A stretch of DNA of 55,664 nt from Candidatus Uhrbacteria bacterium GW2011_GWC2_41_11 (GTDB lineage: Bacteria > Patescibacteriota > Patescibacteriia > UBA9934 > GWF2-40-263). The DNA lies in NCBI GenBank assembly GCA_000996355.1, contig LCAH01000010.1, positions 1-55,664 on the forward strand, read 5' to 3'. This document shows positions 25-44,018 of this stretch, one piece after another; position 1 is the first letter of the stretch; every line of letters begins with the position of its first letter. Made by a program: the position numbers and the translations under genes. The notes under the pieces were generated by a model, which saw only the letters and a list, made by a program, of their open reading frames with translations, was not told the origin of the DNA and made no database searches.

Positions 25-112
25 TGGCGGAGAGGGAGGGATTCGAACCCTCGATACCTTGCGGCATACGCGCTTTCCAAGCGCGCGCAATCGACCACTA
101 TGCGACCTCTCC
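25..112 (-). tRNA. tRNA-Ser(GGA), CCA end encoded
   Basis: The reverse complement reads GGAGAGGTCGCATAGTGGTCGATTGCGCGCGCTT-GGA-AAGCGCGTATGCCGCAAGGTATCGAGGGTTCGAATCCCTCCCTCTCCGCCA. It has an acceptor stem, a GGA anticodon, a long variable arm, a TTCGAAT T-loop and CCA. Confidence 0.97.
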
Positions 113-200: not shown

Positions 201-488
201 ATGGAACATCAAAAATCTCATTCATCTCTCGAATCTACAAACAAAAGTGAACAAGAAAAAAAAGAACAAGAAATAAGAGATGTTATGCAAGACATCTTGG
301 CCAATGCAAATTCTAAAAAAGAAGCTGAAAATCAAATTCAAGTAGAACTTCGAAAAAAAGGTTATTCTGTCTTAGGTCCAATGCTGATATGGGACGAAAC
401 AACAAAATTTCGAAGTGCACTTGTCACAGTTCGCTCGCACCCAGGCAATGGATTTCAAATCGAGGCTACATATCAAGCTTACAAATAG
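201..488 (+). CDS. hypothetical protein (95 aa)
   Basis: ATG-started ORF with an AT-rich leader; charged N-terminus; no recognised motif. Confidence 0.6.
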   Translation: MEHQKSHSSLESTNKSEQEKKEQEIRDVMQDILANANSKKEAENQIQVELRKKGYSVLGPMLIWDETTKFRSALVTVRSHPGNGFQIEATYQAYK

Positions 489-501
489 ATCGATTTGTCT
501 T

Positions 502-879
502 ATGAAACACTTCATTCCTGGTCATCTCCCGGACAATGCACGCAATCTCTTACGTCGCCTAGGTTATGGCGAACATATTGGCCATGGTGGGCAAACCAGT
601 TTTTCCAAACGTTTAAGTGGAGCAGACTTCCCTCGTTTTCACGTTTATGTGGAAGAAAATGCGCAAGGTCTTCAAATCAATCTGCATTTAGACCAGAAAC
701 CTGTAAACTTGGGAGGTGGATCAGTTCACGGAGGAGAATATGAGGGGACACTCGTTGAGCGTGAAATGAATGCAATCATATCCGGCATAAAATCCATGGA
801 AATTCCGGAACAGGAAAATGATTCAAAATCGTCTTCCAGACCAAAAAAAGGGTTTTGGGGTTCGTTTTTCGGCACGTAA
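502..879 (+). CDS. hypothetical protein (MKHFIPGHLPDNARNLLRRLGYGEH...)
   Basis: The ATG at 502 follows the upstream stop. The product looks globular (RFHVYV, INLHLDQ) and ends in a KKGFWGSFFG tail. The track start at 415 overlaps the previous gene. Confidence 0.7.
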   Translation: MKHFIPGHLPDNARNLLRRLGYGEHIGHGGQTSFSKRLSGADFPRFHVYVEENAQGLQINLHLDQKPVNLGGGSVHGGEYEGTLVEREMNAIISGIKSMEIPEQENDSKSSSRPKKGFWGSFFGT

Positions 880-932
880 TTTTCCTCCCTTTCAAAAATC
901 GTCTACAAATGACGATTTTTTGTTATATTCTA

Positions 933-961
933 TTGACAATAATGTATTTTATTGCTACTTT
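933..961 (+). promoter_or_regulatory. sigma70-like promoter of the accessory operon
   Basis: TTGACA (933-938), 17-nt spacer, TACTTT (956-961). Confidence 0.5.
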
Positions 962-1029
962 AACAAGTCAAATTTTGTCAAAACAAAATTTGTGATCTTT
1001 TTCAAAACCCAAACGCAGGAGAAGTGTAC

Positions 1030-1584
1030 ATGGAAATGGAATACGTCAGACAATCTGCACGCGACACGACCTATACCATGTTTCAAGGGAAGGACGTGGA
1101 AACATTTGATCCTGAAAAACTTCACGTGATTCAACGAGCGAACATGGAGATTCGATCGTTAGGAGTCCACATTGATGCGGCGATTATTGGCGAAAGCCAC
1201 TTTGTCCGCATTGAAAAAAATGGACAATTGATTTTGGTCGAAATGCTCGCCTGTGTAAATTTGGATGAGCTTGGATTCAAGACGGAGAGATCCTGGCAAC
1301 TCAGCCGAATCAATGATCACCTCATCTCCATGTATTTCTGCCGAGATTACACAATCACAACGAATGTGCACATTCTCGAACCGAGAACATGGCATACTAC
1401 GATCTAGAAAAGAGCAAAACGAATGCTCTTTTTGAAAGAAGTATTTCCCGGACATGAAAGTCCGGCAACCGAGATCGGTATTATGGCATACGGATTGGAA
1501 ATTTCCATTGCCACCGTCCATGAATACGCCTTGGGTGATGGTCGAATAGAGCCGATCATCACACATACTTCCATTGTGTTTTAA
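1030..1584 (+). pseudogene. DUF2617-like protein interrupted by one in-frame TAG (1405-1407); nonsense allele, sequencing error or readthrough
   Basis: SD AGGAG at 1017-1021 and ATG at 1030. After the TAG the same frame continues KRAKRMLFLKEVFPGHESPATEIGIMAYGLEISIATVHEYALGDGRIEPIITHTSIVF to TAA at 1582-1584. The IIGESH and FPG...T.HEY...THT motifs resemble DUF2617 (recalled). Confidence 0.7.
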
Positions 1585-1595
1585 AGGAGAAAAAA

Positions 1596-3260
1596 ATGAA
1601 ACGATGGATTCTATGTTTGATCGTGTTTGGTCTGTCATTTCTGACAGGTTGTAGTATGGACAAGTTCATACTACTCGAGGCGGAACAGCTTCCAAATAAA
1701 GTGGCAGAGACCGAGAAATTTCTCTCCATTGTGCGAGTGGATTATGACACCGCGATTTCCGCGTCAAAAATTCCGAATCTTGCTGGTATTACCACGCGCG
1801 AAAAACTTGCGGAAAATTTCAACAAAGCAGATGCAAGTATGAAGCGTGGCAAACGCATTGCTTCCGAAGTCGCGGAACTCGCGAAACAGAATCGGCATGC
1901 GGATGAAGCCGTAACAAAAGCAAAGATCGCGAATTGCAAACGCACATTGACTGAGGTCAAACAGCTTGCGTCGATCCCTGGAGAACGACTGTGGGAATGG
2001 GAGGGCATCTTCGCAAACGCGAAACCACGAAGCGCAGTGGCTACAAAACGCGTCGAGGAGATGAATCATGAAATCGATGCCAACCTGGTTGGAAAAGGCC
2101 CGGTGAAGTTACGCGTTCAGGTGCAGTCGAAATCCTATCCGAATAAGGAGAAAGATCTCACCGCACGAGTGGACGACATCTTCAAGACAAAAGAGGAATT
2201 GAATGGATTCCTGAAAACCGTCCAGACGCAGTCCGCGCTCATTGAGCACGGCTCCGCTGAAACGGACATCGTTGTCCTTCTCAATGCTCTGGACAACGTA
2301 GACGAAACCGTCGAAGTTATTACCATGGCTCTCGAGGATCTCAAAGAAAAACTTGAGGAACTCGACGAGACATACGAAACAGTTCTCATCCGACTCCAAA
2401 AAATCCCCACATTCAAAATTCACCTGAGTAAATGGAATTGGGGGAGTGAAGAATATGGAGATGGAACAGAGACAGCTCTAGGCTGGCAAGATGTTTCAGA
2501 AGATGAATGGTTCTCTGAGCAATATGCGGAAGATGTGGTCGTAGAATCATCTGGATCAGAATTCTACAGTGGAAGTTCCACCGAAGTTTCGGATAAGGAC
2601 ATCATCTATCGCTACCTTGCCACAACCTTCGAACGGAAGAATGGGCAAGAAGGAGAACCTATTGAAAGTGAAATCGAGGAAGAACTTTACGAGGATTACC
2701 TTGAGATCGTTCGCAAACTCCATGCCTTGTTTCCAGATAACGGCGTCATCGGTCGTGAAGAATCCTCAAATCACATGGATCCAGAAGACAATGAGTCTAT
2801 TCGGCAAGATTTGCAGGTTCGCGTCGTGACTGAGATGAAAGTCCCTGGTCAATACGAGGAAGAGGCAAACGACAGCCCGAGCCCTGACGGCGTTCCGCTC
2901 GGACTCGTTGGTAATCCAGAATACGGGCAGTGGCAGAATGGGATGGATGGAGTACAAACATGGCACTGGCATGATTACATGCTGGGACACTTCCATTCAC
3001 ACCATGTATTCATCACCTATTGGAATCCGTATCCATACAGTCTGTATTCTCCGTATTCATCCTGGCGACGGGAAATAGGGTATGGGAACTGCTACGACAG
3101 TTTTGGAAATTATACCTGCCGCGGCGCGCATACTCGCGGAATGTACCGCAGTGCCTATCGAACATCCAGAGACACAAACATGTCGCCAAATAGTGCTCGA
3201 GGTATTCGTGGTGCAGGTCCTGGTGCGCGAGCACGTGGTGCAGGTGGTGGTGGAAAATAA
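1596..3260 (+). CDS. large lipoprotein: coiled-coil body, acidic region, aromatic/His-rich segment and Arg/Gly tail
   Basis: Signal peptide with lipobox LTGC; SD AAGGAG; ends RGAGPGARARGAGGGGK. Confidence 0.85.
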   Translation: MKRWILCLIVFGLSFLTGCSMDKFILLEAEQLPNKVAETEKFLSIVRVDYDTAISASKIPNLAGITTREKLAENFNKADASMKRGKRIASEVAELAKQNRHADEAVTKAKIANCKRTLTEVKQLASIPGERLWEWEGIFANAKPRSAVATKRVEEMNHEIDANLVGKGPVKLRVQVQSKSYPNKEKDLTARVDDIFKTKEELNGFLKTVQTQSALIEHGSAETDIVVLLNALDNVDETVEVITMALEDLKEKLEELDETYETVLIRLQKIPTFKIHLSKWNWGSEEYGDGTETALGWQDVSEDEWFSEQYAEDVVVESSGSEFYSGSSTEVSDKDIIYRYLATTFERKNGQEGEPIESEIEEELYEDYLEIVRKLHALFPDNGVIGREESSNHMDPEDNESIRQDLQVRVVTEMKVPGQYEEEANDSPSPDGVPLGLVGNPEYGQWQNGMDGVQTWHWHDYMLGHFHSHHVFITYWNPYPYSLYSPYSSWRREIGYGNCYDSFGNYTCRGAHTRGMYRSAYRTSRDTNMSPNSARGIRGAGPGARARGAGGGGK

Positions 3261-3281
3261 CTGAAAAAAAGGAGAAACGTT

Positions 3282-4196
3282 ATGGATATACTCATGATGA
3301 GTCTGAATGTCCTCACTTTTTTCGTCGACCTCTTTTCTTCTATCCCATACATCCTCCTGGTTCTGATCCTCGTTCCGACTATTGGATTCCTCCTGATTGA
3401 CAAGGTCATGACCAGTGGAATCAACATGCGCGCTGCCCTGTTTGAACAGGATAATCCAGTTGCCGGGTTCGAGTTCGGAGGACAGATCATCCTGCTTATC
3501 TACGCCGGATTCTGTGCGATCATGGGTCCGACCGTCGGATCATTTGGCACAGACTTCCTGGTCGCGGGCGGATGGATTATTGGCAGCATGGTCACGATCA
3601 CAGTTGTCCGTGGCATTCTCGGCTACATGGTCAAAACCCACAATGGCGGCAACGATCTGAACCACGAGATCTTCGTACAGAGAAATTGGGCCGCCGGTTG
3701 CTACAGTTTAGCCCTCACGATCGGAATCGTGAGCGGACTCACGGAAGAAGACATGTTCGGATCTGCGCCTTTGCGTGATCTTGCGATCGCCGCGACTGTA
3801 CTCGGATTCGGACTTTCCGTTGGATGGCTTTTTCGGATCACACACCTTCATGGACGAAGTGCATTTCATGCCATGTTCACGGAGGACAATTCGGCAGCGG
3901 GCGTAAGTCTGCTCGGATTCGCTGTTGCGGCAAATATCATTTTTGCCAAAGCCGCGGATCTTGTCCGCCTCATGGAAAACGGAATCGGTATGACCATCGG
4001 ATGCGTCATATTCTATTCCTTCTTCCTGCTTGCTCTCATGAGTTTGTTGAGAACAGGGATGGAGTACGGACTCCGACTGACTCTCAAGGTCGACATTACA
4101 GATGAAACTTTTGCACAAAAAAATGTGGGTGCAGGATTCATTGATGCAAGTGTGACCATCGGGGTTGCCCTGCTTCTCACAGGCGCCATCTCCTAA
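3282..4196 (+). CDS. DUF350 family multi-pass membrane protein (tandem DUF350-like repeats)
   Basis: Repeated motifs LFEQDNPVAG, EIFVQRNWAAG, MFTEDNSAAG and ETFAQKNVGAG, each followed by hydrophobic helices; SD present. Confidence 0.8.
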   Translation: MDILMMSLNVLTFFVDLFSSIPYILLVLILVPTIGFLLIDKVMTSGINMRAALFEQDNPVAGFEFGGQIILLIYAGFCAIMGPTVGSFGTDFLVAGGWIIGSMVTITVVRGILGYMVKTHNGGNDLNHEIFVQRNWAAGCYSLALTIGIVSGLTEEDMFGSAPLRDLAIAATVLGFGLSVGWLFRITHLHGRSAFHAMFTEDNSAAGVSLLGFAVAANIIFAKAADLVRLMENGIGMTIGCVIFYSFFLLALMSLLRTGMEYGLRLTLKVDITDETFAQKNVGAGFIDASVTIGVALLLTGAIS

Positions 4197-4202
4197 ACCA
4201 TT

Positions 4203-4242
4203 GGCTGTTCCCTTCTCTTCTCGGGAATAGAACAGCCCTTTT
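4203..4242 (+). terminator. hairpin with short U-tract between the DUF350 gene and speE
   Basis: GGCTGTTC (4203-4210) pairs with GAACAGCC (4230-4237), followed by CTTTT. Confidence 0.5.
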
Positions 4243-4319
4243 CGAGAGACTAGAAGTCTTCATTGATTTCTGGATTCTCGATCAGTTTCTTTCACAATCA
4301 AAAAAACTTCGGAGGATTC

Positions 4320-5861
4320 ATGAATTTTCGAAAATCCATTTTGTATCTCGCCATCTTTGCCGCAGGTTTCTGTGGCATGGTCACGGAAAATTCTATTTCC
4401 ACGGCCATGAGCTATCTTGAAGAAAATACAGCTGCGGCATACGCGGTCGTGATCGGGACATTCATGTTGTCCCTTGGTGTCGGTGGATACGCGAGCCAAT
4501 TCATGCGAAGTGGGAAGGAACTCGGAATGTTCGTTCTGATCGAACTCGTCCTTTCGATTCTCACAGCTGCTTCCGTCATTCTTATGATGGAAGCTGCGGT
4601 TGTGGAACTTGATTGGACTGCTGGACTTATCCTTACCTTCGCGATCGGCGTGCTCGTCGGACTTGAGCTTCCGCTCATCATCCGGATCAATGAAACCCAA
4701 CAGGTCGCGCTCAAGGACAACATCGCGAAGATGCTCTGGGCCGATTATCTAGGCGGATTTCTCGCTGGAATTAGTTTCTGCTGGCTTCTGCCCAAACTCG
4801 ATATTGTTCATATTCCCATTCTTGCTGGAGCAATCAATCTCGGCATTGGCGCGGCTGTAGCCATTGGTTTCCGGTCCGAACTTCGCATGCGGACATTTGC
4901 ACCAGCCCTGGGCGCCGGAGCTCTCGCGCTTGGAATAATCTGGATCCTGGCCGGCCGCACGGTCGCAATCGCGGAGCAAGCCCAATTCGAGGACCCTATC
5001 ATCTTCCATGAGCAAACCGTGTACCAACGCATCGTAATTACGAAACAGGATGTACGCAATATTTGTTTATATCTGAATGGACAGACCCAGTTCTGTACTG
5101 TAGATGAAGCGCGGTACCATGAGTCACTCGTGCATCCGGCATTCGGACTGAACCCGTCTGCCAAACGGATCCTGATCCTTGGCGGCGGAGACGGCATGGC
5201 CGCACGAGAAATTCTGAAGTATCCGGACACGACAATCACTCTCGTGGATCTTGATCCGCACATGGTGGAACTGTGTCGAACGTATCCGCGACTCGTTTGG
5301 GCAAACAACGGATCCCTGAATGATTTGCGCGTGCAAATAGTTTCTGCGGATGCCTACAAATGGATCCAAAAAAATTTGGATTTGTGGGATATTATTTTCA
5401 TCGACCTGCCGGATCCAAGCCATCCAGCGCTTGCGAAACTGTATAGCGTTGAGTTCTACCGCATGGTGGCCAGCCGTCTGGCTCCAGATGGTGTCATGGT
5501 AACGCAATCCACGTCTCCGATTCACGCACCAGAGGTGTTTGTCGCGATTTGGAAAACCATGAAGACGACCGGACTTTCTGTGATCCCCTACCGAACGAAT
5601 GTTCCGACGTTCGGCGATTGGGGATTCAATCTCGGTATGCGACCGAAAGACAAAACGGAACGGGAAATTCTGGACGCGCTTGAGACGTTCGTCCCGGATC
5701 GTCTGGTTGAGACGAAATACTTGAACCAACCAGCCATGCAAGCCGCACTCCGATTTGAAAAAGGAATTTTTCCGGCTAACCTGGACAAGGTTGAAGCCAG
5801 TCGGATCATCAAACCCACGGTTCTCACGGCGTATGAAATGTCGTGGGACAAAATCGAATAA
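4320..5861 (+). CDS. speE: polyamine aminopropyltransferase (spermidine synthase family) with N-terminal multi-TM domain
   Basis: Motifs LYLNGQTQF, DEARYHESLVHP, ILILGGGDGMAAREIL, VDLDP, IDLPDP and VPTFGDWGF; about 7 TM helices at the N-terminus; SD GGAGG before the ATG at 4320. Confidence 0.92.
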   Translation: MNFRKSILYLAIFAAGFCGMVTENSISTAMSYLEENTAAAYAVVIGTFMLSLGVGGYASQFMRSGKELGMFVLIELVLSILTAASVILMMEAAVVELDWTAGLILTFAIGVLVGLELPLIIRINETQQVALKDNIAKMLWADYLGGFLAGISFCWLLPKLDIVHIPILAGAINLGIGAAVAIGFRSELRMRTFAPALGAGALALGIIWILAGRTVAIAEQAQFEDPIIFHEQTVYQRIVITKQDVRNICLYLNGQTQFCTVDEARYHESLVHPAFGLNPSAKRILILGGGDGMAAREILKYPDTTITLVDLDPHMVELCRTYPRLVWANNGSLNDLRVQIVSADAYKWIQKNLDLWDIIFIDLPDPSHPALAKLYSVEFYRMVASRLAPDGVMVTQSTSPIHAPEVFVAIWKTMKTTGLSVIPYRTNVPTFGDWGFNLGMRPKDKTEREILDALETFVPDRLVETKYLNQPAMQAALRFEKGIFPANLDKVEASRIIKPTVLTAYEMSWDKIE

Positions 5862-5876
5862 CAAAAGGAGGATGAC

Positions 5877-6497
5877 ATGGAACTTCTCATATTGTTGGGA
5901 ATCGGTGGAATCGGTTTAAGTATTGCATTCGTCGTCTCCCGGCTACGGCGCCACACTCCTCGCATCTCCAAATTGGAGAGCAAAAAAGTGGCTGCAAACC
6001 CCGCTTCGCTCAAGGTTGGCAGCACTGTGTACCTGGACGATGCGGATGATACATTCGATGTCCAGGCTGTTTCCCGTTACGAAGTCAAAAACGAACCAGA
6101 CGATTTCTGGTACGAATTCGAGATCTTCGATTCAATCGGAAACCGCACATCCTACCTCGCCTGCGAACGTGACGAAGAAGATCGCTGGCGCTGGAGCACG
6201 CACCGAAAGTTGAACACCGGTGATGTCGCGAATCCACTTGACGCAAACGGAAAACCGTTCCGTGAATTCACCATCGAGGGTCGCACATGGCGTGTTGCCC
6301 CTGATTGTTTCAACTACCAAACTCACTCAAAGGGTACACGTATCGATCGTCCGGAAGAAGTACAGGAAACAGTCCGCATCACGGATTATGTTCCGACGGA
6401 CGGATCCGCGCATGAATTGAGTATCGAAGTGTGGAAGGGTGGCATGTGTGTGACTATTGGTCAGGCATGTCAAAGCAAAATCCTCGTTCTTTCCTAA
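5877..6497 (+). CDS. DUF4178-like protein with N-terminal TM anchor
   Basis: N-terminal hydrophobic helix, then LKVG...FDV...RY...WYEF...YLACE...W; SD AAGGAGG; operon context. Confidence 0.7.
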   Translation: MELLILLGIGGIGLSIAFVVSRLRRHTPRISKLESKKVAANPASLKVGSTVYLDDADDTFDVQAVSRYEVKNEPDDFWYEFEIFDSIGNRTSYLACERDEEDRWRWSTHRKLNTGDVANPLDANGKPFREFTIEGRTWRVAPDCFNYQTHSKGTRIDRPEEVQETVRITDYVPTDGSAHELSIEVWKGGMCVTIGQACQSKILVLS

Positions 6498-6512
6498 ACC
6501 AAAGGAGATCGC

Positions 6513-7055
6513 ATGAATCGATTTATCAATCTTGTGAAAGATCTTCTCAGTTCCAAAAAAGAAACACTTGCTAACCCGTTTCGTATCCATGAAAATGATT
6601 GGATACGACTCTCGGATCCGAGGATTGATGTTCAGGTGTATGGCATTCTCCGATCCGAAATAACTGATTCAAACGGTATACGGGTTGGAAGTTTACACTA
6701 TTTCCATTGTTTCGATCATGAGACAACAAGGAATATCGATCTTGTCACTGTTGTAACAGAAGATGAAAACGGAAATACCTGGAAATGGTTTTCTGTCACG
6801 ACTCTTCCAAGAAACCGGATTTCATTCGAGGGTCATCTTCCTCGAATGTTCCGATATAAGGAACAGGTCTGGATTTCCAAAGACAAAAGAGTAAGTATTC
6901 CTGTGTGGCGAGAAGGAGTCAAATTCTCAATGCCACCCATGGAAACATATAGTTGTTTCAATCAAAATTTTCTCATCTGGATTCCGATTGATGAGACAGA
7001 AAAACCTGTCTTTGGCCAAGCCTGCATCAGTCAGGTGCTTGTGGTCAAAGGATAA
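6513..7055 (+). CDS. second DUF4178-like paralogue without TM anchor
   Basis: Shares its layout and C-terminal GQAC motif with the upstream gene (GQACQSKILVL vs GQACISQVLVV); SD AAGGAG. Confidence 0.6.
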   Translation: MNRFINLVKDLLSSKKETLANPFRIHENDWIRLSDPRIDVQVYGILRSEITDSNGIRVGSLHYFHCFDHETTRNIDLVTVVTEDENGNTWKWFSVTTLPRNRISFEGHLPRMFRYKEQVWISKDKRVSIPVWREGVKFSMPPMETYSCFNQNFLIWIPIDETEKPVFGQACISQVLVVKG

Positions 7056-7062
7056 AAACTTG

Positions 7063-7087
7063 CAGAGCTTCACGGCTCTGTTTTTTT
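7063..7087 (+). terminator. intrinsic terminator closing the accessory operon
   Basis: CAGAGC-TTCACG-GCTCTG followed by T7. Confidence 0.8.
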
Positions 7088-7837
7088 CTGTCGAAATTTC
7101 CAAAAAAGAAAACATCCGTATGTAATCATTCCCAGACTCGCATACTGAGCCGGCGTAAGGAACAAATATCGTGTATCAACAATAGGTCCGCTTGTGGCGC
7201 GAAGAAAATCTAAAAAGAAACGAGAGATCCCATACCAAAGTAAAAACGTGACAAGATACATTCCTTGCCGGACTCGATATTTTACAAGTAAAAGAAAAAT
7301 AGCAAATAAAAGAAAGCCATTTAAAAAAAGATACAACCCAAGATCATGCCGAATCATTCCATCCGGATATCGAATGCCGAGAAAAAAATCTGTGGCTGTT
7401 CCTGGATGATCATGTATAAAAAAACATCCGATCCGACCAATTCCATATCCGAGAGGCAATCCAAAAATCGCTGCATCTGCATATTTCCAAACATCGACGT
7501 GTCGACGACGCAAGAACCAAATACTTGCAATCACGGCACCCGCGAATCCACCCATACTCGACATACCTCCATTCCAAATCGCCATGATTTCAAATGGATG
7601 AGCGAAATAATACGACGGCTCATAAAATAGGATATGAAAAAGCCGCGCTCCAACCATGGAAGCAATCAAAATCCACACAAGAAGATCCCAGAGCATTACC
7701 GCATCAAGTCCTTGTTTTTTTATCATGCGGGCGGAGACTGTGGCACCAATCAAAAAACCAAGAGCGACCATAAGACCCCATACCTGAATGGTAAGCGGTC
7801 CAACGGAAAAATGCGGAAAATAAATGTACGGAATCAT
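7070..7837 (-). CDS. lgt: prolipoprotein diacylglyceryl transferase
   Basis: Motifs GARLFHILFY, WNGGMSSMGG and GIGRIGCFFIHDHPG. The start at 7837 overlaps the gatA stop (ATGA). Confidence 0.93.
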   Translation of the reverse strand: MIPYIYFPHFSVGPLTIQVWGLMVALGFLIGATVSARMIKKQGLDAVMLWDLLVWILIASMVGARLFHILFYEPSYYFAHPFEIMAIWNGGMSSMGGFAGAVIASIWFLRRRHVDVWKYADAAIFGLPLGYGIGRIGCFFIHDHPGTATDFFLGIRYPDGMIRHDLGLYLFLNGFLLFAIFLLLVKYRVRQGMYLVTFLLWYGISRFFLDFLRATSGPIVDTRYLFLTPAQYASLGMITYGCFLFWKFRQKKTEP

Positions 7838-9294
7838 ACGTTCTTTTCCGGACGTTTTGTATGCCAATCTGTTTTTGTTTGATAATGCTTCCCAAGACGG
7901 AAAAGAGTTTCTTCTCCAAATGGTCGACCCATGAGTTGAAGTCCTACAGGTAATCCATCCACAAAACCGCACGGAAGAGACATAGCTGGAATCGCGGCCA
8001 AGTTCGCGGAAATCGTATAAATATCCGAAAGATACATGGTAAGCGGATCATCAAACTTTTCTCCAATATTCCAAGCAACGGAAGGCGAAGTTGGTGTAAG
8101 AATCGCATCAACATGCTTAAATACTTCGTCAAAATCACGACGAATGAGCATACGAACCTGAAGCGCTTTTTTGTAATACGCATCATAATATCCTTTTGAA
8201 AGTGCATAACTTCCAAGCATGATACGACGTTTTACTTCAGACCCGAATCCTTCTCCGCGACTGCGTTCATACGTTTCCATAAGCGTACGACCTGAGGAAG
8301 CCGCATATCCGTAACGCATTCCATCAAATCGCCCCAAGTTTGAACTGGATTCACATGGCATAATGATGTAATACGCTGCAAGCGCATATTCCGCATGCGG
8401 AAGCGAAATTTCATGTACGTCCGCTCCACCTTGTTGCAAAACTTCCACAGCTTGAAAAACAGATGTGCGAATACGTTCATCCATTCCTTCAAGAAAATAT
8501 TCTTTTGGAAGACCAATGCGCAACCCGGCAACATCTTCTGAAATCAATTCTGCCACTGTCGTATCTCCCCCTGCCACAGTTGTTGCATCTTTTGGATCAT
8601 CTCCTTCCACTACTTGAAGAAGAAGAGCTGCATCTTCAACCGTTCTTGCAAAAGGACCTATTTGATCAAGACTCGATGCCATGGCCATCAAACCATACCG
8701 GCTCACACGACCATATGTTGGTTTGAGTCCAACCACACCACAAAGAGAAGCAGGCTGTCGAATAGAACCACCTGTATCTGAACCAAACGCTCCAGGTACA
8801 AAATCCGCAGCAACCGCCGCGGCAGATCCGCCACTTGAACCACCTGGCACTTTTGTCTGATTCCAAGGATTATGTGTTTGACCAAAATGAGATGTTTCTG
8901 TGGAAGACCCCATGGCAAATTCATCCATGTTGGTGACTCCAAGAATAATGGCTCCGGCTGCTCGTAATCGTTCAACAACCGTTGCATCGTATGGAGCAAC
9001 ATAATTTTCCAAAATACGTGATCCTGCAGTGGCTTTTAATCCTTTTGCCAACATGTTTGCTTTCACAGCAATCGGAATTCCGGCTAATACCCCAAGTTCT
9101 TGTCCACCAGCCGCACGTTTTACATCAATCGATTCTGCTTCTTTCAATGCTGTTTCTGAGATCTGAATAAAAGCATTCAATGCCCCATTTTGTTTTTTAA
9201 TGCGTTCAAGACACGCTTCTGTTAATGCTTTGCTTGTGATCTCTCCTGCAGCTATTTTTTGTTTCGCTTCGATGATTGTGAAACTTTGTATCAT
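7834..9294 (-). CDS. gatA: Asp/Glu-tRNA amidotransferase subunit A
   Basis: Amidase signature: [39 protein letters not shown]. Confidence 0.98.
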
Positions 9295-9603: not shown

Positions 9604-9610
9604 AATTTTA

Positions 9611-9735
9611 TAGGACCTTTCTCGTTTTGCCCATTTTGGGCTTACCATGCACCATCTGGTGCATGGCTTACGGGGACCCCAGTTTTTCTCGCTGTACTTG
9701 ATTGAGTACAGCTCGATAAAACTGAGAAAGTTCTA
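9611..9735. repeat. MITE-like structured element, copy A (125 bp)
   Basis: Ends TAGGACCTTTCTC ... GAGAAAGTTCTA; flanked by TTTTA on both sides; core TCGCTGTAC..TGAGTACAGCTC shared with 30576-30699. Confidence 0.7.
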
Positions 9736-19785: not shown

Positions 19786-20850
19786 TCAGTCTTTACTGTT
19801 TTCCCAAGGAAATTCAGATTTTCCAAAATGTCCGTACACAGCTGTTTGACGAAAAATCGGACGAGATAAACCAAGCGTTTCGCGGATAGCCACAGGACGA
19901 AAATTAAATGCTTTTTCTTGAAGAAAAGAAGAGAGATCTTTTCCTTGTTCATCAACTGCCCGAAGCATAAGGGGCTCTGCTTTTCCAATGGCATAAGCAA
20001 CAGAAACAAGACATTGGTTGGCTCTTCCGCTCGCAACAATCTGTTTCGCCGTAAAACGCGCCATGTATGCTGCACAGCGATCAACTTTTGTCGCATCTTT
20101 TCCAGAAAAACATCCGCCTCCGTGTGGAAGAAGACCGCCGTATGTATCAACCATAATCTTCCGACCTGTGAGACCTGTGTCTGCCTCGAATCCGCCACGC
20201 ACAAAAGAACCGGTTGGATTCACAAACACATCAGAAACCGTCTTAAACGAAAAATGATATTCTTCTAAGATTGGTTTCACGATCTGTTCAAGAATACTTG
20301 CCCGAATCTCGTTTTGTAAAACAGACACATCATGCTGACAGCTGACAAGAATACATGTTGGTCGTCCATGTTCCATGGTGACTTGTGTTTTTCCATCTGG
20401 TCTCAACCATGGAATCTGTCCATTTTTTCGAAGAGTATCCAATCGCTTGGCCATAGCATGAACAAGAACGACCCCGACAGGAAGCATCTCCGGAGTTTCA
20501 TTCGTAGCAAATCCATACATAATTCCTTGATCCCCTGCTCCACCTTGATCTACTCCACACGCAATATCCGAAGACTGCTCAGAGACATTAACAAGAACAC
20601 GAGGTTCATCCTCATATCCGATGTTCTTATAAACCATTCGAGCGATCTTTTCGTAATTGACGCGCGCGAGGCTTGTCACTTCTCCACCAATCACAATCAT
20701 ACCGTGACTGCCAAATGTCTCGACTGCTACGCGGCTTCCAGGATCCTCCGCAAGACAGGCATCGAGAATAGCATCGGATATCTGATCACACACTTTGTCA
20801 GGATGACCGGAAGTCACGCTTTCAACTGTATAGATAGAAGGGATGTACAT
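19786..20850 (-). CDS. metK: S-adenosylmethionine synthetase
   Basis: ESVTSGHPDK, GAGDQG, DTGLTGRKI and GGGCFSGKD motifs. Confidence 0.98.
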   Translation of the reverse strand: MYIPSIYTVESVTSGHPDKVCDQISDAILDACLAEDPGSRVAVETFGSHGMIVIGGEVTSLARVNYEKIARMVYKNIGYEDEPRVLVNVSEQSSDIACGVDQGGAGDQGIMYGFATNETPEMLPVGVVLVHAMAKRLDTLRKNGQIPWLRPDGKTQVTMEHGRPTCILVSCQHDVSVLQNEIRASILEQIVKPILEEYHFSFKTVSDVFVNPTGSFVRGGFEADTGLTGRKIMVDTYGGLLPHGGGCFSGKDATKVDRCAAYMARFTAKQIVASGRANQCLVSVAYAIGKAEPLMLRAVDEQGKDLSSFLQEKAFNFRPVAIRETLGLSRPIFRQTAVYGHFGKSEFPWENSKD

Positions 20851-23593: not shown

Positions 23594-24043
23594 TTAGGAA
23601 ATTCCGAGCTCTTTCGCCTGTTTTTCGGAAACGACTCGGAATCCTTGCTCAACAAGGATCTTTTTGAGAAGATCGACTCGATCTTTCAGGGTCTCGATTG
23701 CTCGATCCCTTCGATTCCGTTCCTCCTCTTCACGAACCGTACGCCACTCGTTCCAGTGGCGGAAGTCGTACAGAGATGCCTCACTCGCCCCACTCCATTC
23801 ATTGTGAAGCTTGACGAGATTTCCCTCTTCATCCCTCACGACGTAATAACCATCTGTTGTTCCTTCGACCTTCTCCACGATCGTGAAGACGGATGGATGG
23901 GAATACTTCGCAAGTGGGTACTTGCTGAAATCCGGATTCTCACCATAACTCACATAGTCGAGCACGACCATCTGGCCGATACGGCCATTTTGATAGATGC
24001 CAGAATACTTGATCTCTTTTCCATTTTTCCAAAATTCCAACAT
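23594..24043 (-). CDS. hypothetical protein (149 aa) with C-terminal coiled coil
   Basis: SD GGAGG, own terminator, no recognised motif. Confidence 0.75.
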   Translation of the reverse strand: MLEFWKNGKEIKYSGIYQNGRIGQMVVLDYVSYGENPDFSKYPLAKYSHPSVFTIVEKVEGTTDGYYVVRDEEGNLVKLHNEWSGASEASLYDFRHWNEWRTVREEEERNRRDRAIETLKDRVDLLKKILVEQGFRVVSEKQAKELGIS

Positions 24044-24290
24044 TTTTACCTCCGTTTTCCCAGAGAATCACCTGAATCTCCGGGTCTATTTTTGACCATG
24101 TACGTAAATGAACAGTGTGTTATTTTAATCATATTTAACCTATTTTGTCAAGATATTTTGTCAACAAAAAATTCTTCCATCAAAAAATGCCAACTAAACT
24201 TGACAAAAACTCTAAAATTTGATAAAAAACTGTCACGTTTCGTTGTTTAAAAACCAAGTCTGAGTCATTTTTTGGCTCTGGAGGAGAACC

Positions 24291-24934: not shown

Positions 24935-25588
24935 TTACTTTTTCACAATATTTTCCACAGCCGCCCAGACACTTGGGGTTGTTTTTGGAACAAGAATCAC
25001 GGCTTCATCTCCCAATTCTCCTCGATAATACGTGACACTCGCTTGAAGCACATGGAATCGTTGCTCTCCACAAAGAACCACATGATTTCCTGCAGACGCA
25101 TCGAAAGCCAACAATCCAACTAATCGACGACGTTCCATGGGACTAATCTGTTTAAACAAAAACGTTCCATCTGACCTAATCGTCAATTTCAAAATATCTC
25201 CCTCAACCAATCGTGATTTTGATGCATAATTTGGAGGAACCGAATAACGTCTTCCATCCGACCCAACCATTTGTTGGCCATCAAATACCCCTTCAACCAC
25301 ACGCGACCCTGAAATATCTTCTAAATGTTTTTCCATTTCTTTTTTTGCTGTCACAAGTTGAGCAAGTGTGGTTGTTTCTTTACTATCCGAGGATGGATTT
25401 TCCAAAAGAGCAATGACGCTTTCTAAATTTTCCTGCATCTGACGCAAAATTTTTTTTGCCATGTCAAACCGACGGTCAGCAATGACCGGAGCTGCATGTC
25501 GTCCAGCTTCTTCGGGTTCAGGTTCAAACAGATTCTCCTCATCCTGAAACTCGAAAGATTCGTCAAGAAAAGGATTTGTCATACTCAA
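24935..25588 (-). CDS. conserved hypothetical protein (VVEGVFDGQQMVGSDGRRYSVPPNYASKSRLVEGD)
   Basis: Long ORF coupled to the upstream ATPase by an ATGA-type overlap; OB-like beta-rich C-terminus (inference). Confidence 0.8.
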   Translation of the reverse strand: MSMTNPFLDESFEFQDEENLFEPEPEEAGRHAAPVIADRRFDMAKKILRQMQENLESVIALLENPSSDSKETTTLAQLVTAKKEMEKHLEDISGSRVVEGVFDGQQMVGSDGRRYSVPPNYASKSRLVEGDILKLTIRSDGTFLFKQISPMERRRLVGLLAFDASAGNHVVLCGEQRFHVLQASVTYYRGELGDEAVILVPKTTPSVWAAVENIVKK

Positions 25589-28158
25589 AATGAAGTTTCA
25601 CCCATTGGTGGACCTTGAAATGCTTCAGACCCGCCCAATTGTGAACGTTCAAGAATATCTGCTTCCACAAGGGCTTTGTCACGTCCATATTTTAATCGCG
25701 ATAATTGATAGACCGCATCTGCAAGTTCACGATCCCCATTTGGAGGTGCCACTGTTTTCATGGTAAATGGTTTTGCTTGCGAATTATCGATAATCATTTT
25801 GACATACCAGGTATACATATCAGAGTTGATCATGTCATACCCGGAAAATGTTGGTGTATACACTTTTTCCAAAATTTCCGTGTCTTCTGGACCAACACGA
25901 GACACAAACATCGTTCCCACGTTTCCCAAAACTGCATCACGCACTTCGGTTTTTCCACCAGATTCGACAAGTTGCCCCATATACTGGTGAGCCATGGTAA
26001 GATCCAGACGATATTTACGTGCTTCGGACAAAATCGTTGCGATTGAATTTGTCACGTAGTTTTGAAACTCGTCAATGTACAAGAAAAAATCTCTGCGTTC
26101 TTCTTCAGGCAAATCTGCTCGACCCATCGCAGCCATCTGGAGTTTGGAAACCATAATCAAACCAAGTAAACTCGCATTTACTTCTCCAGTTTTTCCTTTC
26201 GAAAGATTCACAAGAAGAATTTTTTGCTTGTCCATGACTTCACGAAAATCAAAGCTCGAATGATTTTGCCCAATAATATTGCGCATCATTTCATTTTCCA
26301 CAAAACGACCAACTTTGGAAATCAAATATCCCAACATTTCCGATTTGTGAAAGTCGCTTGTTTTTGCCATTTCTTTTTCCCAGTAGGCACGCACCACAGG
26401 ATCTTTCACTTTTGCAATCCAAGAATCCGCAAAATCCTGATCAGAAAACATGCGCGGAATCTCTGCAATCGTCCCTGGATTTTCCGGGTCAGACATGAGG
26501 GTCAACATCACATTGCGCATGTTGTGCTCGAACATCGGACCGATCATTTCCGGCGGGAATAATTTATAAAAAATCGAAATCATTTCCTGTACGGCAAAAT
26601 CTTTCAAATTTTCATTTTTTACTTCCAACATGTTCAATCCAAATGGACGATCCGTATCAGACGGATTAAACACGATCACATCATCAATACGATGTCGTGG
26701 AATATTGGCCAAAACCAGTTCAACCAAATCTCCGTGTGGATCAAGCACACACACCCCTTCTCCATTTTGAATATCTTGAATAATCATGCTCGCCAAAAAT
26801 TTGGATTTTCCAGACCCAGATTTTCCAATCAAATACATGTGGCGTTGACGATCTGGACGCTTAATGTGAATGGGAACTTTTCGACCACGAAACACATTGT
26901 ATCCAAGAAAGATTCCTTCTCCGGGACCAGGAACATTCACCGGAGCCGGAGCACGCCGCGCACCAAGCCATTGAATATTTGGAGTTTCTGTTGTCGGCAA
27001 TGGCAAATGCCACAAACTCGACATTTCTTCCGTATTCAAATTGATCTTATAAAACTCATCAAAGGTTCGATAAATAAATCGACGAATCAAACGTTTTTTG
27101 GAAGGAGGAACCGCTTTATCAAAAACATTTCCAAACTGGTACGAATTGTATTGAGAAAAAGCACTGAGCAAATTGGTCATGGTTGTTTGCGCCGCATCAG
27201 GATTTTCCGAAGAAACAACAAGCCGAATATTTACATCAAGTCCTGCTTTGCTTGCCTTTTGTTCAAGCCCTTTTACACTCTCTTCTTCCATGGGAGACAA
27301 CCGGTACGATTCTGGCTGTTCTGGCGGTTTAACTGTTCCTCCACTAAAAATTAAACTCATCCATCCATTTTTCTTCGTACGATCCTTTCCCTGCAGCACA
27401 TCCTCAAGCTTCATTCCTTGTTGCATACGTCTGGCAATTCCAAGCCCTTTGGATCGCCATTCTCTGCGCGCAGAACGAATTACATACTGAATCGCAGCCC
27501 CTTCTTCTATTCCAAGTTTGGATAATGCGTTTGTGAGCGCATTCAAAGGATCCGCATCTAATTTTTGATACGTCTTAATCGGAAAAGCGCTTGGTCGCTT
27601 GAAAATAAGATAACTTCCCAAAATCACGCCTGTTGGACGGAAAATATTATAATCTTCGACTTCTTCAATATGCGCATCCGAATAGGTAGACGACAACTGT
27701 TGTTCGACATGTGTCTGCATTTTTTTCGAAACCGCAATATAAAAATAAATGAGTCCATTTCGCACCACAATTTCAAATGACATTTCATCTGTACGGCCAA
27801 ACAACCACGCCTTCAACCCACGCTGAGCTTTCAAACCGCCCATGGTCGAAAAAAAACTGTCTGCAATCGCAATCGATTGCCGAATTTGTTCAATGGATGT
27901 TTCGCGCGTCACATCCTCAGCGCGTCTAAATTTCGGAAGGGTTATCTGAAGAACCGTTCGTTCAAATCCGCCATGTCGCCCACGTGCCTGGCGACGAAAG
28001 AAAAATCGCAAAATAAAAAGAAGAGCAATTCCAACCAAAAGCAAAACAACCGCCCCGAGAATCACGGTCGGTAAAAAAAGATCTCCTCCCATGTCTATTG
28101 GCTGGGAGAATGACTCTTCTTCAACAAGAAAATTCGTCTGCAAAAAGGGCAACACCAT
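25585..28158 (-). CDS. VirD4/TraG/HerA-like P-loop ATPase (type IV coupling protein-like) with N-terminal TM
   Basis: RQRHMYLIGKSGSGKS (Walker A), LDPHGDL, LYIDEFQN (Walker B) and LSEARKY. Confidence 0.88.
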   Translation of the reverse strand: MVLPFLQTNFLVEEESFSQPIDMGGDLFLPTVILGAVVLLLVGIALLFILRFFFRRQARGRHGGFERTVLQITLPKFRRAEDVTRETSIEQIRQSIAIADSFFSTMGGLKAQRGLKAWLFGRTDEMSFEIVVRNGLIYFYIAVSKKMQTHVEQQLSSTYSDAHIEEVEDYNIFRPTGVILGSYLIFKRPSAFPIKTYQKLDADPLNALTNALSKLGIEEGAAIQYVIRSARREWRSKGLGIARRMQQGMKLEDVLQGKDRTKKNGWMSLIFSGGTVKPPEQPESYRLSPMEEESVKGLEQKASKAGLDVNIRLVVSSENPDAAQTTMTNLLSAFSQYNSYQFGNVFDKAVPPSKKRLIRRFIYRTFDEFYKINLNTEEMSSLWHLPLPTTETPNIQWLGARRAPAPVNVPGPGEGIFLGYNVFRGRKVPIHIKRPDRQRHMYLIGKSGSGKSKFLASMIIQDIQNGEGVCVLDPHGDLVELVLANIPRHRIDDVIVFNPSDTDRPFGLNMLEVKNENLKDFAVQEMISIFYKLFPPEMIGPMFEHNMRNVMLTLMSDPENPGTIAEIPRMFSDQDFADSWIAKVKDPVVRAYWEKEMAKTSDFHKSEMLGYLISKVGRFVENEMMRNIIGQNHSSFDFREVMDKQKILLVNLSKGKTGEVNASLLGLIMVSKLQMAAMGRADLPEEERRDFFLYIDEFQNYVTNSIATILSEARKYRLDLTMAHQYMGQLVESGGKTEVRDAVLGNVGTMFVSRVGPEDTEILEKVYTPTFSGYDMINSDMYTWYVKMIIDNSQAKPFTMKTVAPPNGDRELADAVYQLSRLKYGRDKALVEADILERSQLGGSEAFQGPPMGETSF

Positions 28159-34323: not shown

Positions 34324-34967
34324 TTATTTTCTGTCTCCAAACAAATCAAGAAGACGCAAGAAAATATTTGCGATGTCAAGATAGATCCCAACCGCGGCAT
34401 CGATGGCATTATCATGTGTCCGCTCGATCCGCATGGCTTGATTCAGATCAAAAATCACGAGTCCGCCAAACAAGAACACGCCAATCCAATCAAGTGCTGT
34501 CATGGCTCCCTCAATCGGAATACCGATCATTCCAGCAAACAGGACGATGAAGGATCCCACAACAAACATACCGAGCGCACCCAAGAGAAAAATCCCCCAG
34601 CTTTCAAGACTCTGTGGATGGTGACCATACCAAGCGTTACCCAAAGAATCTTGAACACACTCGCCGTCGTATACAGTGCCACAACCGGCCCAGTGACGAG
34701 TCCGAATGGAATGGTTACCATCATATACCCGACAAGCGAAACCAAGGGATTCTTGCTGCCGTGTGCAATAAACACACCGGCAATCGAAACGACGAGAACG
34801 CCGATGATTCCCCAAACATCCACATGCCAATCTCTGGCAATGTATGTGGCGGTCGCGCTCGCAAAAATTCCCACCACTGTCCAGAAACAAACCAAAAATG
34901 CAAAAAGATTCCTGGACATGGCATGGTCATCTCCAACACGTTTCCAAACATCTGATGCGATCTTCAT
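34324..34967 (-). pseudogene. Bax inhibitor-1/YccA family membrane protein, frameshifted near 34613-34622
   Basis: The N-half frame ends ...LWVTLGMVTI; the C-half in another frame reads PQSLESWG...FDLNQA...AVGIYLDIANIFLRLL, a BI-1 signature. Confidence 0.85.
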
Positions 34968-43592: not shown

Positions 43593-44018
43593 CAAGCTAT
43601 CGAAACAGGTTCTCCAGTGCCTGCCCAAAATTTTTGGTCATGTCTTCCGTCAAACGGGCATAGAGGAATATAACCTTAGCCTCGTTGACCATGAACGATT
43701 TCCCATGGAACCAGTCCATAGTAGCCACGACTGGATGCTGGTGGTGGTTGCCATCAGTGATTACAGCGATTCGCTTGATTCCACACAGTGCCATGGCAAA
43801 GACCATTGGATACCCGATCCCGATCTCACGACCGAGATGCTCTGCCTGAGCCTCAGTCCCGAGCATGTAGGCCTCTGCTGGCATCATAAGATCGAGGAGA
43901 GCTGCATCGAATATCTCTTCCTGAACCCTATGAAGAGCCTCTCCATAAGTGCTGACAGCCACAACATCATGACCGAGAACCTCAAGTTGGCGCTTGCCCG
44001 CCCGGCGGTGCTTCGGTG

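Follow-up and report, generated by a model that had tools for sequence, protein, structure and literature searches.

A GC-rich operon in a Patescibacteria genome, probably of lateral origin, that pairs a membrane-fused aminopropyltransferase with a Gly-Lys-ended lipoprotein

In this study, we analyzed a 55,664-nt stretch of DNA from Candidatus Uhrbacteria bacterium GW2011_GWC2_41_11 (contig LCAH01000010.1; hereafter the window, in whose positions coordinates are given unless another locus is named). The subject is the operon region at 1030-7087, whose genes encode, in order, a DUF2617 protein, a large lipoprotein, a DUF350 protein, a transmembrane (TM)-fused aminopropyltransferase, a DUF4178 protein and an ORFan (Table 1). 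In the Patescibacteria chromosome, the module is flanked by a tRNA-Ser gene on one side and by the host's ligA-gatCA-lgt unit on the other. Operons of this kind have already been described, in the Mycobacterium tuberculosis Rv2597-2601 and Shewanella SO_3762-67 types (Ravi et al. 2024, PMC11237479); what is newly noticed here is the Gly-Lys terminus of the partner lipoprotein.

An initial annotation, made from the letters of the sequence, described six co-oriented genes, each with a strong Shine-Dalgarno (SD) site, behind one promoter and before a closing terminator. The genes are indeed all on the plus strand, and the SD sites can be read directly: AGGAGA before the ATG at 1030, AAAGGAGA before 1596 and 6513, AAGGAGA before 3282, GGAGGA before 4320 and AAGGAGGA before 5877. 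The start of gene 4 was taken as the ATG at 4320 with its GGAGGA, not as the upstream TTG of the mechanical ORF. The closing terminator is present as a hairpin with a T-run. The single promoter is a sigma-70-like match at the level of consensus only, and the 14 promoter-like sites found against 10.2 expected in shuffled sequence are no excess. The proposed gene order was right for the lipoprotein (lipobox LTGC), DUF350, the TM-aminopropyltransferase and the DUF4178 of gene 5, but not for an intact gene 1 or for a DUF4178 in gene 6; HMM searches with each ORF likewise matched DUF350, Spermine_synth and the DUF4178 of gene 5, gene 1 only when read through its stop codon, and gene 6 not at all.

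Table 1. Features of the operon region and its immediate surroundings (window positions).
Feature	Position	Strand	Remark
tRNA-Ser(GGA)	25-112	-	ARAGORN; context only
Upstream two-ORF unit	201-879		Closed by terminator-like hairpin 894-920
Terminator-like hairpin, left operon edge	894-920	+	-10.3 kcal/mol, z -4.6
Promoter-like sigma-70 consensus matches	902-929 and 960-989	+	Consensus level only
Gene 1, DUF2617, interrupted	1030-1584	+	
Gene 2, 554-aa lipoprotein	1596-3260	+	
Gene 3, tandem DUF350 (YjfL-type), about 8 TM helices	3282-4196	+	
Two stem-loops in gene 3-gene 4 spacer	4203-4284	+	Folding z -4.2
Gene 4, 513-aa TM-fused aminopropyltransferase	4320-5861	+	
Gene 5, N-terminal TM anchor and DUF4178	5877-6497	+	
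Gene 6, 180-aa soluble ORFan	6513-7055	+	
Bidirectional terminator hairpin and T-run	7062-7088		T-run hairpin 7062-7081; z -3.4; common to convergent lgt
lgt, prolipoprotein diacylglyceryl transferase	7070-7837	-	Pfam LGT 177 bits; context only

The product of gene 4 matched Pfam Spermine_synth with 129.6 bits at residues 283-462, behind a hydrophobic N-terminal third. It also matched the NCBIfam family NF002956 (PRK03612, polyamine aminopropyltransferase) with 515.6 bits against a cut-off of 472, residues 4-511 being aligned to positions 18-520 of the 522 in the profile. An identity as a fused MFS/spermidine synthase (NF037959) was tried and rejected at 29.7 bits, under the cut-off of 40. Alignments to the PDB were with thermospermine synthase, the Pyrobaculum and Thermus aminopropyltransferases and SpeE of Bacillus subtilis; the motifs YHESLVHPA, GGGDG, VDLD and DLPDP align to their counterparts in PDB aminopropyltransferases, including 6bq2 and 7xif. 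A word-filtered search scored 5,507 homologues among 8,000 candidates. In an alignment of 49 homologues, the invariant catalytic residues are Y266-H267-E268, G288, G290-D291-G292, D310, D312, D362 and P364-D365-P366, and the membrane part also holds invariant positions (E23, G55, G110, G114, E116, P118, L119, R122, D142-Y143, G145, G170 and N173).

The AlphaFold2 (AF2) model of gene 4 (pLDDT 93, pTM 0.85) consists of helices at 3-34, 37-61, 67-94, 98-127, 134-183 and 190-221, followed by the alpha/beta SpeE fold. A Foldseek search with this model retrieved 1uir, 6bq2 and 7xif at E ~1e-15, with a TM-score of up to 0.83 normalised to the target; only the catalytic domain was matched, and nothing was returned for the TM domain. 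By sequence, solved-structure relatives were detectable neither for the TM domain nor for DUF350, DUF4178 and DUF2617. Gene 4 shares its fold and the YHE, GGG(D/E)G and D-x-x-D-P motifs with the soluble aminopropyltransferases (1uir, 6bq2, 7xif, 1iy9). However, those enzymes stand alone and act on free polyamines, whereas the catalytic domain of gene 4 is preceded by ~220 TM residues with invariant charged residues and its gene has a conserved set of partners. Judged from sequence and model, gene 4 encodes a full-length PRK03612-type enzyme, with the motifs for catalysis and for binding decarboxylated S-adenosylmethionine (dcAdoMet) intact and a confidently predicted SpeE fold. As to topology, residues 134-183 hold a conserved LLPxxG..TP turn, which would give seven passes. 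A positive-inside count over the 49 homologues places the N-terminus and loops 4 and 6 inside, with loop 2 near neutral and positive residues at the end of TM2. Seven TM helices and this count together would place the catalytic domain outside.

Gene 2 begins with the lipoprotein signal MKRWILCLIVFGLSFLTGC. Since the host carries lgt, it can lipidate the product. The protein consists of a predicted helical N-terminal half, a conserved C-terminal region (K415, GQY, SPSPDG, YGQW) and a low-complexity, Gly/Arg-rich tail (3207-3260) that ends GGGGK-COOH. No match was found in Pfam, NCBIfam or the PDB (the last also searched with a profile), none to DUF4247 at E up to 10 for gene 2 and four homologues, and gene 2 showed no detectable homology to DUF1190; a sub-threshold PspA_IM30 match of one homologue (E 0.008) is too weak to use. 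The AF2 model, made from a two-sequence alignment, has a pLDDT of 37, with residues 23-125 alone modelled with any confidence. Whether run with gene 2 alone or with a profile of five sequences, protein searches retrieved nothing beyond gene 2 itself and one other protein (P0142), the word filter probably being swamped by the low-complexity tail. Homologues were collected instead from the neighborhoods of SpeE relatives.

Among the loci and contigs compared with the window (labelled by L-numbers), lipoproteins of 479-556 aa homologous to gene 2 adjoin the enzyme gene in eight (L012-L015, L096-L098 and L103), in hosts with 47-70% GC; the 554-aa lipoprotein is thus not special to this locus, contrary to what the initial annotation had supposed. 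The nine homologues, 24-74% identical, share invariant residues along their length: Cys19 of the lipobox, C114, W135, K184, D187, R191, K415-x-x-GQY, P428, P434, VG438-439, G444, W446, W456, Y487, G495, G550, G553 and K554. All nine end in GG(G)K-COOH, and most in ...RGAGPxxRSRGxGGG(G)K. The 314-aa lipoprotein of L002, which has no significant similarity to gene 2 (BLASTP E 0.27), ends ...GRGRSFGGGRGGK (GGGRGGK), and in L101 and L102, operons of the PspA/CesT type, the short lipoproteins end ...RSRGFSFGK and ...RSSGGFGK. A Gly-Lys end is therefore found in 12 of 12 lipoproteins encoded beside TM-aminopropyltransferase genes (window, L002, L012-15, L096-98 and L101-103). As a control, all non-redundant loci fetched, including 80 unrelated GatA loci, were translated in six frames; among the 1,664 ORFs that reached 100 aa or more, a GGK end occurred in 10, each of them one of these lipoproteins.

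The other membrane proteins are assigned by family. Gene 3 matched Pfam DUF350 (PF03994) with 54 bits against a cut-off of 26, in two stretches of its 304 aa, and its hydropathy profile shows eight hydrophobic segments. Gene 5 matched DUF4178 (PF13785) with 36.2 bits against a cut-off of 25, residues 58-197 corresponding to positions 11-133 of the 136 in the profile. The TM segment of gene 5 is followed by RLRRHTPR, so the DUF4178 domain is predicted to be cytoplasmic. A PDB sequence search with the gene 5 profile gave no match; homologues of the gene are found in L012-14 and L096-98. In the spacer between genes 3 and 4, the first of two strong stem-loops is followed by CUUUUC. Both are kept in L012 (3291-3419; z -4.9), where GUCC/GGAC stands for the GUUC/GAAC of the window, a single compensatory pair change, and L013 has a 14-bp perfect hairpin at the equivalent place (8922-9000). 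An Rfam scan of 850-7200 found no known RNA. By attenuation, or through processing or stabilisation of the RNA, the stem-loops may set how strongly the genes upstream and downstream of them are expressed relative to each other.

Gene 1 is interrupted by a single in-frame TAG at 1405-1407, which leaves fragments of 125 and 53 aa. As encoded, its 127-aa ORF scored 19 bits on Pfam PF10936, under the gathering cut-off of 22.3; read through the TAG, it scored 34.8 bits and covered positions 30-148 of DUF2617. The family named in the initial annotation is thus right, but the gene is broken in this genome. The stop is one allele of a segregating C/T polymorphism, as the window and seven other assemblies have TAG, and L005 has CAG (Gln) and an intact 184-aa DUF2617 protein. 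In an alignment of seven DUF2617 proteins, the stop falls in a variable linker between two conserved, His-containing blocks, IIGESH..E..C before it and FPG..TVHEY after it. The 53-aa remainder retains an in-frame ATG, and a two-piece DUF2617 protein is conceivable. A PDB sequence search with the gene 1 profile gave no match.

Gene 6 is the least typical member of the transcription unit. It had been taken as a second copy of DUF4178, which the searches do not bear out: no Pfam match was found at E up to 1 and none in NCBIfam, and a profile comparison with DUF4178 (hhalign) gave a probability of 3.2%. BLASTP against gene 5 yielded a lone 13-aa C-terminal match (E 0.014). From two weak colinear matches, a very diverged DUF4178 duplicate is possible. 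A full HMMER scan of 1.84 billion representative proteins returned gene 6 itself and one weak repeat match only; this sole non-self match, a protein of 2138 aa (P0144), has seven repeats that resemble residues 35-67 (E 5e-5). No counterpart was found in the related operons examined, and the product has no TM segment and no signal sequence. The composition of gene 6 is host-like (GC 0.40, GC3 0.37), and both of its population SNPs are synonymous. In three of the high-GC relatives, DUF4178 is followed by a conserved protein of 174-197 aa that has a TM anchor and no Pfam match (L096 10194-10718, L097 10194-10727, L014 11104-11697) and that occupies the position of gene 6; the two share a short SHET.R..L..VV motif at a matching position, which is not significant (hhalign E 0.11). 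Gene 6 is a lineage-specific ORF appended to the transcription unit, and its functional membership in the module is uncertain.

The locus is present in independent assemblies. A 4,577-bp contig (L001) of 'MAG: Patescibacteria group bacterium isolate SO_2017_GW1_224', retrieved with gene 4 from a genome collection, corresponds to window 4123-8699 at 99.87% identity, in agreement with the candidate phyla radiation (CPR)-like host that had been proposed from the sequence. A look-up of the exact gene 4 protein returned 19 contigs from NCBI (GCA_000996715.1), ENA, JGI and Logan groundwater assemblies. Alignment of nine of these loci and L001 to the window gave 99.8-100% identity in the parts that they cover; save for small indels, they together span both operon junctions. 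An assembly chimera is excluded because independent contigs agree across these junctions. Genes 1-6 contain 11 population SNPs, of which eight are synonymous, two are missense (one each in genes 2 and 3) and one is the nonsense/Gln difference in gene 1. The pattern is that of genes under constraint, although the numbers are small. Length differences were also seen: L004 shows an 8-bp difference in the spacer between genes 5 and 6 (~6500), and the gatC-ligA spacer (~9608-9723) varies among contigs, with GatC called as 101, 111 or 118 aa.

The composition of the operon differs from that of its surroundings. In 1-kb windows, GC is 0.48-0.51 between 2 and 6 kb against ~0.41 elsewhere, and the 300-bp profile shows a block at ~1650-6450 of about 0.45-0.55. 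GC3 of genes 1-5 is 0.48, 0.48, 0.58, 0.56 and 0.54, whereas the other 38 ORFs scored in the window have a mean of 0.33, most lying at about 0.24-0.37. GC and GC3 thus bear out the visual impression of a GC-rich region for ~1650-6450, but not for gene 6, whose host-like composition means that the block ends at ~6450 and not at 7087. The exceptions outside the operon are a transposase gene, an opposite-strand ORF that overlaps it and a few unannotated ORFs. The transposase gene, of the Mutator family, lies at 44020-45036 (GC3 0.475) with the overlapping ORF at 43705-44244, and forms a second atypical patch; the further GC3-rich ORFs are at 52028-52735 (0.52), 23645-24250 (0.47) and 34324-34890 (0.47; Bax1-I family match).

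The nearest non-self relatives of the operon sit in unrelated genomic contexts. The closest, L012, is 80% identical in SpeE and also encodes DUF2617, a 554-aa lipoprotein (73%), DUF350 (69%) and DUF4178 (70%). Its genes 1-5 are intact, gene 6 is absent and the right flank is different. As GC3 is 0.58-0.59 in its operon genes 2-5 and 0.23-0.44 in the flanking genes, the pattern of the window, a GC-rich module within an AT-rich genome, is repeated in L012 at another site. The next relatives, at 43-54% identity, are L013 and L103, with the same architecture and 47-49% GC, and L014, L015, L096, L097 and L098 at 63-70% GC, of which one lies on a contig of 6.9 Mb. The combination of DUF2617 with a large lipoprotein with a low-complexity tail recurs in L012, L013 and L103. 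More distant operons are arranged differently. In the Gemmatimonadaceae operon L002 (36%), DUF2617, two DUF350 genes and SpeE are followed by the 314-aa lipoprotein; the Nitrospinae-type L101 and L102 (~41%) have a short lipoprotein, DUF350 and SpeE with a divergent DUF4178-PspA-CesT set, and L101 also has DUF2617.

A metagenome scan with the host GatA returned relatives of at most 59% identity from many phyla. Seven of these GatA loci keep the ligA-gatA synteny, and none has an operon homologue, although at 51-55% GatA identity they are too distant to be decisive. No integrase was found in the window or in the 5.7 kb upstream, no transposase borders the operon, and the only flanking direct repeats are short, A-rich and at chance level. 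A tRNA-targeted integrase island was considered and rejected: integrase and flanking repeats are missing, and the operon lies on the 5' side of tRNA-Ser, which is not the 3'-end integration site of a tRNA. Lateral acquisition is nevertheless indicated, because the composition and the phyletic pattern, with relatives in genomes of 47-70% GC and synteny loci that lack the operon, point to it together. The identity of the module and its lateral origin, the latter already suggested by the initial annotation, are very likely correct.

Among the known systems, the closest in content is that of M. tuberculosis, where Rv2597-Rv2601 encode TM+DUF4178, DUF2617, SIG+DUF4247, YjfL and TM+Spermine_synth (PMC11237479 supplement); these are the families that had been named in the initial annotation. 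As in that operon, DUF2617, DUF350, the TM-aminopropyltransferase and TM+DUF4178 are present, a secreted or lipoprotein component stands between DUF2617 and DUF350, and the PspA/CesT dyad is absent. In contrast to that operon, the window encodes a 554-aa lipoprotein without a DUF4247 match, has DUF4178 last and not first, carries DUF350 in tandem in one protein, has a stop-split DUF2617 and an extra ORFan, and belongs to a Patescibacteria host. The Shewanella operon SO_3762-SO_3767 comprises LipoSIG+Ctha_1186+Low-comp, YjfL, TM+Spermine_synth, CesT/DUF2170, PspA, DUF4178 and RHH (PMC11237479). It resembles the window in its order of a lipoprotein with a low-complexity tail, DUF350 and the TM-aminopropyltransferase, with DUF4178 downstream. 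Unlike it, the window operon and its flanks lack PspA, CesT and RHH and have DUF2617 instead; the CesT/Tir-PspA dyad marks the Shewanella type, and DUF4247 with DUF2617 takes its place in the M. tuberculosis type (PMC11237479). L101 and L102, whose PspA/CesT set is like that of SO_3762-67, have short lipoproteins with a similar Gly-Lys tail.

Ravi et al. propose that these systems sense the level of polyamines, or aminopropyl transfer onto substrates of other kinds, and change the structure of the membrane accordingly; on 'aminopropylation of other substrates' they cite Li et al. 2019 (PMC11237479). Like the fused MFS/spermidine synthases, gene 4 joins a membrane domain to a SpeE-like domain, but it belongs to another membrane-fusion family, with ~7 TM helices. 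In work that Li and colleagues are said to have published in 2019 in Biochem J, a related MFS-SpdSyn fusion reportedly failed to complement a spermidine synthase deletion of Escherichia coli, and bacteria with such fusions reportedly lacked spermidine. The same work is said to place MFS-SpdSyn in clusters with AdoMet decarboxylase and DUF350 and to propose an acceptor other than putrescine.

A second parallel comes from E. coli K-12, where the DUF350 gene yjfL stands beside yjfM (DUF1190) and yjfC, and ygiB (DUF1190) beside ygiC; the link that the initial annotation drew between DUF350 and genes like that of glutathionylspermidine synthetase is confirmed in that yjfL adjoins yjfC. RefSeq names both YjfC and YgiC 'peptide--spermidine ligase'. 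A 2025 review (PMC11762307) states that this activity was shown in 2023 and that its physiological substrate is unknown; it cites Pederick et al. 2023 for the ATP-grasp ligase, which links spermidine to the carboxylate of a peptide. As in yjfIJKLMC, the window operon combines DUF350 and a Cys-anchored protein with a Gly/Arg/Ser-rich tail beside a polyamine-handling enzyme; ygiBC pairs lipoprotein and ligase, with no DUF350 gene in the stretch shown. The tails are alike in style (YjfM ...TVSRGGYGRSSSARGHWGG, gene 2 ...IRGAGPGARARGAGGGGK). However, the enzyme in the E. coli yjf and ygi loci is an ATP-grasp ligase and the tails end in Gly-Gly (YjfM ...ARGHWGG, L099 7388-8026; YgiB ...SSRSMGG, L100 2245-2916), whereas the window has an aminopropyltransferase and Gly-Lys.

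Taken together, it is rather probable that the five genes at 1030-6497 form an envelope module of the described TM-aminopropyltransferase operon family, acquired laterally and working by aminopropylation. Gene 4, anchored in the membrane through its TM domain and acting together with the DUF350 protein, would move the aminopropyl group from dcAdoMet to a membrane-proximal acceptor and would not make bulk spermidine. The preferred acceptor would be the epsilon-amino group of the lipoprotein's invariant C-terminal lysine, so that a surface lipoprotein would come to carry a polyamine-like extension at its C-terminus. In parallel, YjfC and YgiC could act on the Gly-Gly C-termini of the neighboring DUF1190 lipoproteins. 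As the lipoproteins end in Gly-Lys next to aminopropyltransferases and in Gly-Gly next to carboxylate-amine ligases, the tail may be what both kinds of enzyme act on. In addition, AdoMet_dc (PF02675) genes close the homologous operons in L096 (10715-11047) and L097 (10724-11337), which argues for a dependence on dcAdoMet. Aminopropylation of some non-canonical, membrane-proximal acceptor we regard as evenly balanced between true and false, while the lysine tail in particular is a tentative candidate that is, taken by itself, unlikely. Distinctly unlikely is the proposal in its full form, in which gene 4 aminopropylates the Gly-Lys epsilon-amine, possibly on the outer membrane face, with dcAdoMet supplied via the TM domain or DUF350, and YjfC/YgiC amidate the Gly-Gly ends of YjfM/YgiB.

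Several observations weigh against this proposal. An outside catalytic domain would be on the lipoprotein's side of the membrane but away from the cytoplasmic dcAdoMet; in the AF2 model as read by DSSP, 134-183 is instead a single helix, and with six passes the domain would lie in the cytoplasm, the site of dcAdoMet synthesis. Among the invariant residues is also the second Asp of DLPDP. In solved spermidine synthases this residue anchors the distal amine of the diamine, and its retention fits a free polyamine better than a lysine with its alpha-carboxylate. The host may lack the aminopropyl donor, since the search from ~-5.7 to +48.6 kb around the operon brought up no AdoMet decarboxylase gene. 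The terminal lysine of a lipoprotein could equally be a point of attachment to the cell wall, as in Braun's lipoprotein. Homologues of another sub-type, on plasmids and on proteobacterial chromids (the latter 34-38% identical), adjoin an FAD oxidoreductase (annotated only in Ralstonia), and no gene-2-like lipoprotein was found near the chromid homologues. The stop in gene 1, present in eight of the nine sequences checked, could mean decay of the module. With regard to the transfer itself, the GatA metagenome scan found no close sister genome without the operon, and no donor lineage was identified among the relatives.

These points feed the alternatives. In one, gene 4 is an ordinary polyamine synthase coupled to export: it makes spermidine or a related free polyamine, which is passed through the TM domain or DUF350 to the surface and stabilises the membrane there, while the lipoprotein binds or senses it. 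The retention of all canonical catalytic and diamine-binding motifs of SpeE, the family name 'polyamine aminopropyltransferase', and the closest solved structures, which are thermospermine and triamine/agmatine aminopropyltransferases, are consistent with this, and the invariant acidic TM residues would suit the binding of cations. So are the FAD oxidoreductase beside the proteobacterial versions and an agmatine-deiminase-like gene (PAD_porph, a weak Pfam match) ~3.5 kb upstream of the enzyme gene in L014. We still consider it rather unlikely, since the host has no diamine-producing or AdoMet decarboxylase gene nearby and the invariant Gly-Lys terminus is left unexplained; the reported failure of MFS-SpdSyn to complement also speaks against it, though indirectly, as gene 4 scores outside the MFS family.

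The same lack of a nearby AdoMet_dc gene, although relatives have one inside the operon, would also fit a transferred operon that does not function in this host and persists because it arrived recently, as would the nonsense allele in most assemblies and a GC3 so far from that of the host that little amelioration is suggested. Such a decaying passenger is nonetheless highly unlikely: genes 2-6 are intact, have strong SD sites and vary at eight synonymous and only two missense positions, the stop in gene 1 spares both conserved blocks and the start codon of the remainder, and L012 keeps genes 1-5 whole at 80% identity. Moreover, the locus is nearly unchanged across assemblies of several projects and samples, one of them labelled 2017. 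This fixation in the population would be expected, too, if the operon had been inherited vertically and owed its composition to gene-specific constraints, a reading to which the membrane proteins encoded by three of the five genes and the lack of integrase, transposase or repeats at the borders would lend themselves. However, the amino-acid content of membrane proteins does not account for the contrast, which lies in third codon positions and is seen in the lipoprotein gene too (GC3 0.48), whose product is largely soluble; host genes for such proteins are not GC3-rich (lgt 0.35, an amino-acid transporter 0.41). The genomes that harbor the relatives at 43-54% identity are much larger and richer in GC, and the ligA-gatA synteny loci retrieved all lack the operon. 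Vertical inheritance is therefore extremely improbable, and lateral acquisition is the reading that we retain.

The remainder of the window is occupied by genes of other kinds. To the right of the operon, lgt is the last gene of the convergent host unit ligA-gatC-gatA-lgt, and the other genes are housekeeping ones, namely gatCA, ligA, pilin, pilM, dnaKJ-grpE-hrcA, metK (19786-20850), dnaX, cysS, recJ, lepA, RNase J, folD, recR, tgt and rsmH. Amid them, 25585-28158 encodes an 857-aa protein with T4SS-DNA_transf and TrwB coupling-protein domains. A gene for a RimK-like ATP-grasp ligase (134.8 bits), a carboxylate-amine ligase, lies at 36778-37692, directly upstream of folD. The exact 14-nt repeat TTCCAAAAAAGAAA occurs at 6551-6564, inside the 5' end of gene 6, and at 7098-7111, past the terminator; 547 nt apart and A-rich, it is probably a chance match.

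In sum, the operon family to which this locus belongs is widespread, and to our knowledge it includes, as Rv2601, the sole annotated 'spermidine synthase' of M. tuberculosis. If the lysine-tail idea is wrong, the locus is an ordinary added member of a described operon family. If it is right, it would represent a new modification, a 'C-terminal polyamination' of envelope lipoproteins reached by two convergent chemistries, and an orphan enzyme family, to which the SpeE of M. tuberculosis belongs, would gain a substrate. The contrast between Gly-Lys and Gly-Gly provides a concrete substrate hypothesis that can be checked by mass spectrometry, and in the Patescibacteria host, a small natural setting, experiments should meet little interference from further polyamine genes. 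Considering that an insert of foreign composition is fixed in the population and mostly intact, the module may confer a benefit at the level of the envelope that is transferable between very different cells.

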